64,000 bases of DNA. Origin: a plasmid. The DNA lies in NCBI RefSeq assembly GCF_057098645.1, contig NZ_JBXSPU010000002.1, one strand, 5' to 3'. The position numbers were made by a program. Shown here piece after piece: positions 18,001-24,000 of the stretch (its first letter is position 1; the number at the start of each line of letters is the position of its first letter).

Positions 18001-21000
18001 TGCCGGGGGAGTATGGCCCAGCCTTTCCAGCAATCGTCGATTGTTATACCAGTCCACCCACGTGAGTGTGGCCAGTTCCACTTCTGCACGGTTTTTCCAG
18101 CTCTTACGGTGTATTACCTCCGCTTTGTAAAGACCATTGATGCTCTCCGCCATCGCGTTGTCATACGAGTCACCTGTACTCCCTGTTGATGCCAGCAGTT
18201 TTGCTTCTTTTAGTCGCTCCGTATAGGCCAGTGATACATACTGAGAACCTTTATCACTGTGATGGACTGTGCCGGACGGCCGACGGGCCCACAACGCCTG
18301 CTCCAGTGCATCCAGCACGAATGTTGTTTCCATGGATGATGAGACCTGCCATCCCACGATGTATCCGGCGAACACATCAATGATGAACGCCACATAAACG
18401 AAGCCCCGCCATGTGCTGACGTAAGTAAAATCAGCCACCCACAGCTGGTCAGGTCGTTCTGCCACGAACTGACGGTTTACGCGGTCGCCTGCGGCAACGG
18501 CTTTCCGGCTGATGGTCGTACGGACCTTTTTACCCCGGAGAACACCGGCAAGTCCCATAACTGCCATGAGACGTGCCACAGTGCATCTGGCCACTCTGAT
18601 ACCTTCCCGTAACAACTGACGCCAGACTTTACGCACACCGTATACCTGGTGATTTTCATCGTATACGCGCTGTATCTCTTTCTTCAGCCAGTCATCGTGC
18701 TGCGCACGGGCACTGCGTTTATCCGGATGATGTCGCTGTTGCTGACAGTGGTAATACGTTGACGGGGCAATATGCAGTTCGCTGCATAGCGGTCCGACCC
18801 CGTACTGCTCACGCAGCTTATCCAGCAGTGGCATCATTTTTTCCAGAGGCGGTCGAACTCCGCCTTCGCAAAATAAGCGGAAGCCTGGCGAAGGATATCG
18901 TTACTGCGGCGCAGTTCACGATTTTCACGCTCCAGCTCTTTCAGACGCTGACGTTCAGCGGTGGTGAGCCCGCCATCACCGCCCCCGGTATCCCGCTCAT
19001 GCTGGCGAACCCAGACACGCAGAGTCTCCGGCGTACAGCCAATCTTTGGAGCAATGGAACAAATTGTCGCCCATTGTGAGTCATATTCATCCTGACTTTC
19101 CAGAACCATACGAATCGCCCGCTGACGGACTTCGGGGGAAAAACGAGTATTTTTAGTCATCCTGTTTACCTCTTTCTCAGGGAGTTTAGTCTCCAGGATT
19201 TCCGGGGCGGTTCAGCCATAAAGTTATGTTCCTGACGTATGTATTCGTCCCGCAGGAATCAACCAACTGATTTATCTGAATTTATCATGCCCCTCAACTC
19301 TGATTTTATTCATCTTGTTTACCGAATCGGGTATATCTGATAACTGTCCCGATAAGACTTTTTGTTTCGCCAGCATAATCTCTTTTTCAAGCTTTTGAAG
19401 TTCTTTTATATAGTCATTCTTCCCTTCTTCATCAGCCGGTGAAATGCTCTCAGGAAGACGCTTCATTGACTCATCTACAGCATCATCCATTCTGTCAAGA
19501 GCTTCAAGAAGCTCCTTTTTATCCATTGATGACTGAAGTACACTCATATTCCTTGCAAGAACTTGCATGCTTTCATCAAGTTCTTCTGCCACTGTAATCC
19601 CCCCACACAAAAAATATAATGCCATACCACAGCTGATTATAACTTTATTGCTTTTCTGCATAATTTCTCCTTCATGAGGGAGGTGCCCTCCCTCATCAGT
19701 TTTATCATTTATTGTTTAAATCAAACCGATCGCTATTCATAACTTTATTCCACGATTTAACAAAATCATGAATAAACTTATTTCTCGCATCATCCGAGGC
19801 ATATACTTCTGCCACCGCACGTAATTCAGGATTTGAACTGAAGATTAAATCAACAGAGGATGCTTTCCATTTTAATGCTCCCGTTTTACGATCGAATCCA
19901 TTGTATGTATCTTCTTTATCTGCTTTACTCCATCGTGTTGACATATCCAGCAGATTAACAAAAAACTTGTTATCCAGAACACCAGGGGTATCGGTAAACA
20001 CTCCCAACGAAGAATTATTTGTATTAATATCCATTACCCGCAGACCACCCAGTAATGCCGTCATTTCAGGAACGGTGAGATCCAGCTGACTGGCTTTATC
20101 AATGAGGCTTTCAACCGGCGATATATGACTTCTGCTTTTTGAGTAATAATTTCTGAATCCATCTGCTGTCGGCTCCAGTACACTGAATGAGGCAACATCC
20201 GTCTGCTCCTGAGAGGCGTCAGTTCTTCCCGGAGTAAAGGGAATCTCAAGTTCCACCCCGGCTTTTCTGGCCGCATCTTCGATTGCAGCATTACCCGAAA
20301 GAACAATTAAATCAGCCAACGACACTTTCTTTCCGTCAGACTGTTTTTTGTTAAATTCACGCTGTAATGAGGTCAGGGATGCCAGTACTTTCTTCAGTTT
20401 TTCAGGCTCATTAACTTCCCAGTTAATTTCGGGCTGTAACCTGATGCGGGCACCATTATTTCCCCCACGATAATCAGTCACACGAAATGTGGAAGCTGAA
20501 GCCCAGGCTGTCTTTATCAGCTCAGATGCAGGGATACCCAAATCCATAACCTGCTCTTTCAGCGACTTAATGTCTTTACCATCAATCATTGTATAATCCG
20601 CCGCAGGAAGAGGATCCTGCCAGATAAATGATTCTGCAGGAACTTCATTACCAAGATATCGGGCTGCCGGTCCCATATCCCGGTGGGTCAGTTTAAACCA
20701 TGCTCTTGCGAATGCCTGCTCAAAAGCTTTTGGATCATTCAGGAAACGGGTGGTTATTTTCTTATATTCAGGATCAACTTTAAGAGCAATATCCGTCGTA
20801 AACATCATCAACGGATGCAGGACAGACGGATCATGCGCGTCCTGAACTATATTTGCCGCTTTTTTAGGCTTCCACTGATAAGCACCGGCAGGACTCTTGT
20901 GCAGCTCCCATTCATATTTATATAAATTCTTCAGATACTGCATTGTGAACTGGGTTGGCGATGTCGACCAGGCTCCTTCCAGGCCACTGGTGATGGTATA

Positions 21001-24000
21001 TTTGCCGTTTCCTGTACCACATTTATTTTTCCATCCCAGTCCCTGCTCCTCCACAGGTGCACCATCAGGCCCTGCGCCAATACATTTTTCAGGAGACGCT
21101 GCACCATGTGCTTTACCAAATGTATGCCCTCCCGCGATCAGGGCCACAGTCTCCTCATCATCCATGGCCATACGTGAAAAAGCTTCCCTGATATCTTTCG
21201 CGGAAGCCAGAGGATCTGGTTTTCCACCGGGGCCTTCAGGATTGACATAAATAAGTCCCATCTGCGTGGCGGCAAGAGGTTTCTGAAGTTTCCCGTTTTT
21301 ATCCCGGTTATCTGCAAGAGGCTTGTTGTCAGGCCCCCAGTATACCAGGTCCGACTCCCAGTCATCTTCTCTTCCGCCAGCAAATCCCAGCGTTTTAAAT
21401 CCCATGGATTCAAGGGCAACATTACCAGTCAGGACCATCAGGTCTCCCCAGGAAATACTGGAGCCGTATTTTTTCTTGACTGGCCACAGCAATCGACGGG
21501 CTTTATCCAGATTAACGTTATCCGGCCAGCTGTTCAGCGGTTCAAAACGTTGCTGACCACCACTGGCGCCTCCCCGGCCATCATATGTCCTGTATGTTCC
21601 GGCACCGTGCCAAGCCATACGAATAAAGAAAGGACCATAATGACCATAATCCGCAGGCCACCAATCCTGGGAAGTTGTCAGCAAATCTTTGATATCTTTT
21701 TTCAGAGCCTCCATATCCAGCTGTTGAAATCTGGTGGCATAATCAAAATCAGCCCCCCAGGGATTTGATTCAGGGCTGTGTAATCTCAGAGGAGTTAAAT
21801 CCAGTGTTTCTGGATAGTAGAAATTTTGAGTCTCTTTTTTATCAGCGGCTACAGCGGTAGAAAAGCTCCCCGATAGCGCCAGAAGAATCAGAACAGGAAG
21901 AGTTTTTTTTATCATACGAATAGCTCCGGATTAAGGGAAATTCGCATGTTGTATACAAAAGTCAACTTTATTGATGCAACAGGATATACCTATTGCTGGG
22001 ATAGATACTACAGACAAAAAATACTAAGGGGTTCCAAGCCGCAACTGAACCGCCCCGGTTTTCCTGGAGAGTGTTTTATCTGTGAACTCAGGCTGCCAGA
22101 TCATCGTTTCTGATGGAAGCATAATAAGCTTTTTCTGCTTCTGCCGGAGGGATATGACCCAGCCTTCCCAGCAATCGTCGATTGTTATACCAGTCCACCC
22201 ACGTGAGTGTGGCCAGTTCCACTTCTGCACGGTTTTTCCAGCTCTTACGGTGTATTACCTCCGCTTTGTAAAGACCATTGATGCTCTCCGCCATCGCGTT
22301 GTCATACGAGTCACCTGTACTCCCTGTTGATGCCAGCAGTTTTGCTTCTTTTAGTCGCTCCGTATAGGCCAGTGATACATACTGAGAACCTTTATCACTG
22401 TGATGGACTGTGCCGGACGGCCGACGGGCCCACAACGCCTGCTCCAGTGCATCCAGCACGAATGTCGTTTCCATGGACGATGAGACCCGCCACCCCACGA
22501 TGTATCCGGCAAACACATCAATGATGAACGCCACATAGACGAAGCCCTGCCATGTGCTGACGTAAGTAAAATCAGCCACCCACAGCTGGTCAGGTCGTTC
22601 TGCCACGAACTGACGGTTTACGCGGTCGCCTGCGGCAACGGCTTTCCGGCTGATGGTCGTACGGACCTTTTTACCCCGGAGAACACCGGCAAGTCCCATA
22701 ACTGCCATGAGACGTGCCACAGTGCATCTGGCCACTCTGATACCTTCCCGTAACAACTGACGCCAGACTTTACGCACACCGTATACCTGGTGATTTTCAT
22801 CGTATACGCGCTGTATCTCTTTCTTCAGCCAGTCATCGTGCTGCGCACGGGCACTGCGTTTATCCGGATGATGTCGCTGTTGCTGACAATGGTAATACGT
22901 TGACGGGGCAATATGCAGTTCGCTGCATAGCGGTCCGACCCCGTACTGCTCACGCAGCTTATCCAGCAGTGGCATCATTTTTTCCAGAGGCGGTCGAACT
23001 CCGCCTTCGCAAAATAAGCGGAAGCCTGGCGAAGGATATCGTTACTGCGGCGCAGTTCACGATTTTCACGTTCCAGCTCTTTCAGACGCTGACGTTCAGC
23101 GGTGGTGAGTCCACCATCACCACTCCCGGTATCCCGCTCATGCTGACGAACCCACACACGCAGAGTCTCTGGTGTACAGCCAATCTTTGGGGCAATGGAA
23201 CAAATTGCCGCCCATTGTGAGTCATATTCGCCCTGACTTTCCAGAACCATACGAACTGCCCGTTGACGGACCTCGGGGGAAAAACGTGTATTTTTAGTCA
23301 TCCTGTTTACCTCTTTCTCAGGGAGTTTAGTCTCCAGGATTCCCGGGGCGGTTCAAGGTTTGCTTTTCTGTGTAGGTTTAGATTTTGTGTTTGCAGGGTA
23401 AACAAAACTGATTAACTCGTCATTTCGGTAACTGAAATAGTTTGCTGTATTCTGTTTACAATCTCTTTAATAAGGCATTTGTCACGTGGCTATTCATATG
23501 AAAATCATACGTTATCTTACAAATCAATCATCTGAGTGTTATAATATAACTTAGCTGTGATATGTGTAAGAATGTTTAGGCAATATATTATTATCGCTAA
23601 TGTTGTTTTGGTTGGGAGAGATTCTCCTTGCGGTAGCTTTTTGTTTTTAGATGCTTCTTGCTTAAAAAGATATAATTTCTGTTCTTTTATATAGGATTCT
23701 TTACATTTACTGAGTTTTCTTATTTATTTAAACATTATGAAATCTAATGCTTTTGACGTCATGGGGAAGGTTGCATGGCTATGGGCCTGTTCTCCTCTGC
23801 ATAAAAAATGGCCATTATCTGTTTTTGCTATTAATGTCATACCTGCTATTCAGACAAATCAATTTGCTCTCTTAATAAAGGATGAGCTTCCTGTAGCTTT
23901 TTGTAGCTGGGCCAGTTTAGATCTGGAATGTGAGGTAAAATATATAAATGATGTAACATCTTTGTATGCAAAAGACTGGATGTCGGGAGAAAGAAAGTGG

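Follow-up and report, generated by a model that had tools for sequence, protein, structure and literature searches.

A cytochrome b562-family gene next to katP on a pO157-type plasmid: a candidate electron donor for an exported catalase-peroxidase

Few proteins serve as models and in engineering as often as cytochrome b562, for example in BRIL fusions and metalloprotein design, and in the literature that we searched no physiological role has been established for its family. For the catalase-peroxidases (KatG) we know of no natural peroxidase substrate that has been identified, and the literature searched showed no electron transfer from any protein carrier to a KatG. The bacterial cytochrome c peroxidase (Ccp; Paracoccus, Escherichia coli) is a periplasmic enzyme that is fed by cytochrome c or pseudoazurin. 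The closest described gene cluster is katY-cybC-cybB of Yersinia pestis, which was predicted from co-expression and verified as a single transcript by reverse-transcription PCR (PMC2231364; also PMC10673613). Here we analyze katP, a gene for an exported catalase-peroxidase, and the small gene that follows it in a 64,000-nucleotide (nt) stretch of contig NZ_JBXSPU010000002.1, a virulence plasmid of the pO157 type from enterohaemorrhagic E. coli (EHEC); the whole stretch is called the window. An original prediction, made from the sequence alone, had proposed that katP is followed by a co-oriented gene for a cytochrome b562-like protein behind an intergenic hairpin, and that the two periplasmic products could form a redox couple.

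The gene pair and its inheritance

The small gene is not new: it carries the RefSeq name "cytochrome b562" (WP_001172748.1) in every one of the hundreds of records inspected, and there is a published operon precedent in Yersinia. Because the gene was already annotated, the sequence finding itself is ordinary. What this analysis adds is the equal synonymous divergence (dS) of the two genes, a hairpin kept between them in several lineages, and the replacement of the cytochrome by a pseudoazurin in Burkholderia. The features of the pair, by position in the window, are:

19705 to 21915, minus strand: katP, exported catalase-peroxidase of 736 amino acids; open reading frame (ORF) with ATG start and TGA stop
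21847 to 21915, minus strand: coding region of the putative KatP signal peptide, 23 residues, predicted cleavage before ADKK
19272 to 19661, minus strand: cytochrome b562-family gene (L7018, WP_001172748.1), precursor of 129 amino acids; ORF with ATG start and TAA stop, assigned by Pfam, structure and RefSeq
19587 to 19661, minus strand: coding region of the putative b562-like signal peptide, residues 1-25, predicted cleavage between TVA and EELDES
19566 to 19568, minus strand: codon of Met32, predicted axial haem ligand (Met7 of mature CybC), in an invariant alignment column
19287 to 19289, minus strand: codon of His125, predicted axial haem ligand (His102 of mature CybC), in an invariant alignment column
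19667 to 19672, minus strand: Shine-Dalgarno sequence AAGGAG of the b562-like gene, 5 nt 5' of the ATG, read directly from the sequence

The ORF that had been predicted to follow katP in the same orientation is real; it encodes 129 amino acids, lies on the minus strand 43 nt downstream of katP, and has the Shine-Dalgarno AAGGAG claimed for it. Many E. coli O157 plasmids match a 3-kb stretch around the two genes at 100% identity. Of 5426 complete E. coli genomes, 481 have the katP-b562 segment, which is plasmid-borne at 486 of the 489 places where it occurs; katP is the annotated name in 481 complete genomes. KatP matches the Pfam peroxidase family with 247 bits and the NCBIfam catalase/peroxidase HPI models with 1083-1213 bits. 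Its relatives within the clade all keep the same N-terminal pattern, i.e., a basic n-region, a hydrophobic core and AVA, and cytoplasmic KatGs begin differently, with a KCPF/V motif.

That the small protein is a member of the cytochrome b562 family, predicted to bind haem b via Met32 and His125, is strongly supported by both profile and model. It matches Pfam PF07361 (Cytochrom_B562) with 54.5 bits, against a cut-off of 30 bits, and residues 27-129 cover positions 1-102 of the 102-position profile; the N- and C-terminal b562 signatures claimed by the original prediction are both present. The AlphaFold model, for which 13 homologues served as input, has a predicted local distance difference test score of 82.6 and four helices (residues 19-44, 48-67, 75-103 and 107-128) arranged in the up-down-up-down bundle expected of the family, with residues 1-20 disordered. 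In a Foldseek search of the PDB its top matches are all cytochrome b562 or engineered BRIL fusions, at target-normalised template-modelling scores of 0.82-0.87 and a root-mean-square deviation of ~2 Å; they include 4er9 of Salmonella and 256b of E. coli (scores of ~0.82-0.83, deviation 2.0 Å). The haem ligands also stand where they were expected: Met32 and His125 are among only seven invariant columns in a 13-member family alignment whose identities reach down to 21%. Both the structural comparison and the ligand positions, which the original prediction had singled out as the places where it could fail, thus came out in its favor.

The predicted signal-like N-terminus can likewise be seen in the sequence. 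A basic MQKSNK, a hydrophobic core and TVA followed by E align with the signal peptide and cleavage position of CybC, the chromosomal cytochrome b562, and cleavage after Ala25 would set the Met ligand at mature position 7, as in CybC. A lipoprotein reading of the FLCGG motif was rejected, because Leu at -1 is unfit for a lipobox and the relatives do not have this motif. The NCBIfam equivalog model for CybC (NF011632 / PRK15058) gives the protein 63.1 bits, below the cut-off of 130, and although RefSeq calls it cytochrome b562 we assign it by sequence to a divergent paralogous subfamily rather than to the orthologues of chromosomal CybC. This subfamily is small, since an exhaustive HMMER search gave only 17 representative clusters at E ≤ 0.001; a profile scan of genome contigs with the alignment of the b562 clade gave only five short, evidently misassigned E. 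coli-like contigs.

Two settings of lone family members were also noted. On an E. coli contig (L008), a 46%-identical homologue lies at 3607-3996 after a LysR-family gene, with no katG within the available 4.3 kb. On two Salmonella F-type plasmids (L017 and L018), a b562 gene of 127 amino acids occupies 5001-5384 in the leading region, where its neighbors are hok/psiA/psiB on one side and a gene for a lytic transglycosylase on the other; there is no katG in the vicinity.

Pairs in which a b562 gene comes directly after the gene for a signal-peptide KatG are also present in four other E. coli lineages (L006, L002, L007 and L009), in Citrobacter, where the pair is chromosomal, in Salmonella, where it lies in an accessory region, and in Yersinia; every KatG in these pairs bears a signal peptide. 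For the four E. coli lineages the identities of b562 and KatP to their counterparts in the window are 90/97, 57/89, 53/87 and 35/75%. In Yersinia pseudotuberculosis the exported KatG and b562 are followed by a cytochrome b561 gene. No b561 gene (cybB) is found as a third gene downstream in the window, nor in L006, L002, L007 and L009, and because these four relatives are free of insertion sequences (IS) at this place we take it that the katP module never had one.

The two genes have the same dS in each comparison (0.21/0.23, 1.07/1.12 and 1.59/1.55), and katP and b562 have therefore been inherited together. The ratio of nonsynonymous to synonymous divergence is 0.22-0.34 for b562 and 0.05-0.07 for katP, values that indicate purifying selection on the b562 gene, weaker than that on katP. 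The G+C content of the b562 gene lies 5-11 points under that of its katG partner in all eight lineages (37.9 versus 45.7% in the window). A consensus scan found no sigma-70-like promoter inside katP and none for a separate b562 transcript. We conclude that katP and the 129-residue gene are inherited, and most likely also transcribed, as a unit, a putative periplasmic module of two genes. The L7018 protein was detected in the proteome of O157 strain 86-24, with a 6.3-fold higher level in infected piglets; of KatP the same study says only that it is abundant, both in vitro and in vivo (PMC3686733). The b562-like protein is thus made in vivo.

The proposed electron-donor role

The b562-like protein is probably a periplasmic electron donor of KatP. 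Specifically, ferrous b562 would hand single electrons to oxidised KatP intermediates, which would give KatP a physiological peroxidase substrate and would also keep it from catalase-inactive states. The cytochrome could be re-reduced from the quinone pool, probably via membrane cytochrome b561 (CybB), which would come from the same operon in Yersinia and from the chromosome in E. coli. In the account that PMC9687031 gives of Ndontsa et al. (2012), peroxidatic electron donors are reported to stimulate the catalase activity of KatG. The comparative data, i.e., the co-inheritance, the Yersinia operon and the Burkholderia pseudoazurin, favor a redox couple without proving it, and make it the best-supported reading of the locus. 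The full proposal, in which the two genes are an exported unit, b562 donates electrons to KatP and the hairpin between them sets their ratio, is tentative, and we place it a little short of an even balance.

The replacement in Burkholderia bears on the nature of the link. In Burkholderia ambifaria, a gene for a pseudoazurin with a signal peptide starts 57 nt after the gene for an exported KatG2 that is 70% identical to KatP. The product matches Pfam Copper-bind with 56 bits and solved pseudoazurins in the PDB with E = 3e-33, and has the ligands Cys-x2-His-x4-Met. A low-GC metagenomic contig (L072, 46-2815) encodes a lipoprotein-type KatG together with a pseudoazurin, which shares 37% identity with that of Burkholderia. 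On another (L109, 3521-6148), an ORF for a membrane-anchored c-type cytochrome (CAGCH) runs in frame into katG with no stop between, which is either a natural fusion or due to an error in sequencing. That two or three unrelated small electron carriers of the periplasm occupy the same position favors electron transfer over haem delivery or chance linkage.

Several observations weigh against a donor role. The pairing with a carrier is clade-restricted and not general to exported KatGs. We surveyed 80 metagenomic KatG loci at 58-66% identity, sorted for signal peptides by an in-house heuristic (about half positive), and ran Pfam on the downstream ORFs, many of which are spurious; among the 25 signal-peptide KatGs with a downstream ORF, b562 was found only at the pO157 copy and a cupredoxin only at L072. 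Among 27 cytoplasmic KatGs, a single one had a neighboring cytochrome c. The exported KatGs of Pantoea and Agarilytica have other neighbors, and lone b562 homologues without katG occur in E. coli (46% identity), on a Salmonella F-type plasmid and in Acinetobacter. The katP module has no cybB, so that the electron source is an assumption. As a catalase KatP is efficient, and that reaction requires no donor. Finally, the literature searched, including a detailed 2023 study of katY, discusses no functional link between KatP or KatY and a cytochrome.

The plasmid database PLSDB was searched as well. Matches to KatP by tblastn in Paraburkholderia and Caballeronia proved to be cytoplasmic KatGs with a KCPF N-terminus and were set aside, no carrier gene was found at the matches in Sinorhizobium and Agarilytica, and the pseudoazurin search gave only pseudoazurins of rhizobial and other alphaproteobacterial plasmids, none adjoining katG.

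Among the alternatives, the one that survives best is that the small protein is an independent passenger, with a periplasmic role of its own like CybC and no interaction with KatP, the linkage reflecting shared regulation or co-transfer in a cassette. The solitary homologues, the lack in the literature searched of an established function for the family, the lower G+C content of the b562 gene and the rise of L7018 in piglets, with KatP described only as abundant, all fit with this. However, the genes have stayed adjacent and co-oriented in at least seven lineages, over synonymous divergence that reaches saturation and is equal for the two, and the pair persists in three settings (plasmid, chromosomal island and Yersinia core). 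The Burkholderia swap to a non-homologous electron carrier is also hard to explain without a functional link, and we regard a passenger as unlikely.

Less probable still is that the b562-like protein handles haem, acting as a periplasmic buffer or donor of haem b that loads apo-KatP instead of supplying electrons. Both proteins have predicted Sec-type signal peptides with no twin-arginine motif, and because such an export route would mean crossing the membrane unfolded, KatP would have to gain its haem b in the periplasm. Both are also predicted haem b proteins, they are tightly co-inherited, and b562 evolves fast except at the haem ligands. But the pseudoazurin at the equivalent position in Burkholderia and L072 carries copper and cannot deliver haem, the Yersinia operon goes on to a membrane cytochrome b561, which better fits a redox chain, and most exported KatGs have no such partner; we therefore consider haem loading improbable.

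Returning to electron donation, a wider version is that KatGs of the KatP/KatY type are carrier-dependent peroxidases, in which electrons would pass from quinol through b561 and b562 (pseudoazurin in Burkholderia) to compound I/II, with the hairpin setting the ratio of enzyme to carrier. We think this possible but doubtful. If true, a carrier-dependent KatG would be the first physiological function for the cytochrome b562 family, and b562 would be the first physiological protein electron donor for a KatG. With b562 beside an exported KatG in one group and pseudoazurin in Burkholderia, the role of b562 and the substrate of KatG become one question. The effect for EHEC would be modest, refining how the pO157 factor KatP guards the periplasm from host-derived peroxide.

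The intercistronic hairpin

The spacer between the genes holds one conspicuous element, and a weaker one follows the pair:

19674 to 19696, minus strand: intercistronic GC hairpin with a perfect 10-bp stem and a 3-nt loop; it begins 8 nt past the katP stop and ends 1 nt short of the Shine-Dalgarno sequence
19229 to 19258, minus strand: weak imperfect hairpin after the b562 stop, possibly an operon terminator (uncertain; fold z = -0.9, not significant alone)

The original prediction had placed the hairpin TGAGGGAGG-TGC-CCTCCCTCA at 19675-19696. The structure is real, but its boundaries need a small correction: the 9-bp form spans 19675-19695, and an end at 19696 fits a 10-bp stem that begins at 19674. 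The arms of the longer form (19674-19683 and 19687-19696) are 10 nt each and 100% complementary, with six GC pairs, and beyond the 3' arm the gene strand reads G, the AAGGAG at 19667-19672, AAATT and the ATG. The predicted RNA fold of the spacer is dominated by this hairpin (-19.8 kcal/mol, z = -3.8, none of 200 shuffles as stable), the 64-kb window contains the motif a single time, and no Rfam family matches it. An alternative pairing of the 3' arm with the Shine-Dalgarno sequence, in a palindrome centered on TCATGA, was dropped because it has no loop and is not conserved in L007 and L002.

Hairpins of differing sequence are found at the same place in L006, L002, L007, L009 and Yersinia (L023), which with the window makes six lineages with perfect or near-perfect stems of 8-15 bp and fold z-scores of -1.8 to -3.8. 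Stem arms (5' arm / 3' arm, gene strand) are, for example:

Window: ATGAGGGAGG / CCTCCCTCAT
L009: ATTGGGGAGG / CCTCCCCAAT
L007: ACAGGGGGAG / CTCCCCCTGT
L002: TTTCCGGGGGAG / CTCCCCCGGAAA
Yersinia (L023): 15 bp around GAGGGGAGG / CTTCCCCCTC

Between lineages, two to six stem positions have changed on both sides and still pair, counted by hand in an outer-anchored register that we chose, as MAFFT put the stems out of register. The hairpin is conserved as a structure and not as a sequence, the firmest evidence being that each lineage has a perfect stem of its own in the same place. In Burkholderia, a comparable GC stem of 16 bp directly adjoins the Shine-Dalgarno sequence in the spacer between katG2 and the pseudoazurin gene. 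The Citrobacter pair has no spacer hairpin, which counts against a necessary part for it in our proposal and shows that the hairpin is not essential to the pairing. A structured spacer 5' of a small redox carrier also recurs outside the enterobacteria, in L072, where a very strong canonical terminator hairpin (z = -5.8) lies between katG and the pseudoazurin gene.

Because no U tract follows the stem on the gene strand, where the sequence reads GAAGGAGAAAUU / GAAGGAGAAAUUAUG, the hairpin is not a canonical intrinsic terminator; in the E. coli lineages the stems are followed on that strand by the purine-rich Shine-Dalgarno sequence. A terminator scan scored it as terminator-like only on the plus strand, with CAGTTTTATC after it, and no plus-strand gene or transcript that would end there is evident. 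The A-rich sequence after the katP stop gives this opposite-strand terminator look in other lineages too. Since the Yersinia operon is transcribed across its version, we read the hairpin as an intercistronic element that would tune the relative amounts of katP and b562 message and may set the ratio of the two products, perhaps as a 3'-end barrier or weak attenuator. Following partial termination or processing it could shield the 3' end of a katP-only mRNA, and read-through past it would still feed the abutting Shine-Dalgarno sequence.

That the hairpin instead terminates katP, leaving b562 as a separate unit or barely expressed, has some appeal from a GC-rich stem 8 nt past the stop codon, from partly U-rich tails after the stems of L009 and Yersinia and from the canonical terminator of L072, but is hardly likely given the missing U tract, the terminator score on the wrong strand, the lack of a promoter-like site for a separate b562 transcript, the transcription across the homologous hairpin in Yersinia (PMC2231364) and the detection of the protein in vivo (PMC3686733). 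At the position after the b562 stop, where the window has its weak hairpin, L002 (z = -5.4) and Citrobacter (L019) have strong ones, the latter with a sequence like that of a canonical terminator.

Flanking sequences and described relatives

On both sides the module is bounded by copies of IS629/IS1203:

17905 to 19214, minus strand: downstream IS629/IS1203 copy of 1310 bp with terminal TGAACCGCCCCGG repeats and orfA/orfB, starting 57 nt after the b562 stop
22046 to 23355, minus strand: upstream IS629/IS1203 copy of 1310 bp in the same orientation, 97.4% identical to the downstream copy
21916 to 22033, minus strand: native katP upstream region with TTGCAT-18 nt-TATACA and CTAT-N7-ATAG, conserved in an alignment with three other lineages

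The junction of the downstream copy was placed by alignment to L006. The two copies bracket a 2831-bp segment that consists of ~118 nt of native upstream sequence, katP, the hairpin, b562 and 57 nt of 3' sequence. A composite transposon was considered and rejected: both copies are present, but target-site duplications are unmatched, with outer flanks GGG / AGG and inner flanks GCC / AAC, no pair of which matches. The window holds four copies of 1310 bp in all (17905-19214, 22046-23355, 31817-33126 and 39797-41106), three of them co-oriented and 96.6-97.4% alike, the fourth inverted. About 18 nt at 22028-22045 (GTTGCGGCTTGGAACCCC, gene strand) separate the end of IS629 from the start of L006 homology. 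Upstream of katP, conservation across four lineages extends from about -105 to -1, and the motifs there can plausibly be read as a promoter and a half-site of the OxyR type, although no sigma-70 site was called in this region by the consensus scan.

Three described systems can be set beside the module. The first is CybC of E. coli and Salmonella (PDB 256b and 4er9), with which the b562-like protein shares a precursor of ~128 amino acids, the four-helix bundle, a His ligand four residues before the C-terminus and a C-terminal H-x-K-[FY]-R; its putative Sec-type signal peptide aligns with that of CybC, and the predicted cleavage would likewise leave a mature form of 104-106 amino acids with the Met ligand at position 7. 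Its identity to E. coli CybC, however, is only 21%, and it is more acidic (net charge -7 and isoelectric point 4.8, compared with -3 and 5.4), two residues shorter in a loop, plasmid-borne and always adjoining an exported KatG. The second is Ccp. As there, the proposal has a periplasmic haem peroxidase that would receive its electrons from a small soluble carrier, itself fed from the quinone pool, and the Burkholderia katG2-pseudoazurin pair fits the same pattern; KatP, however, is a class I peroxidase-catalase of the KatG type and not a di-haem enzyme, and has a donor-free catalase cycle. The third is katY-cybC-cybB (YPO3319-3321). Its exported KatG shares 75% identity with KatP, the b562 gene comes next on the same strand, and the spacer also has a GC hairpin with the same GGGGAG/CTCCCC core. 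In Yersinia the spacer is longer (78 nt versus 43 nt in the window), the b562 is a canonical one (103 bits with Pfam), and a third gene for cytochrome b561 (cybB), absent from the katP modules, completes the operon.

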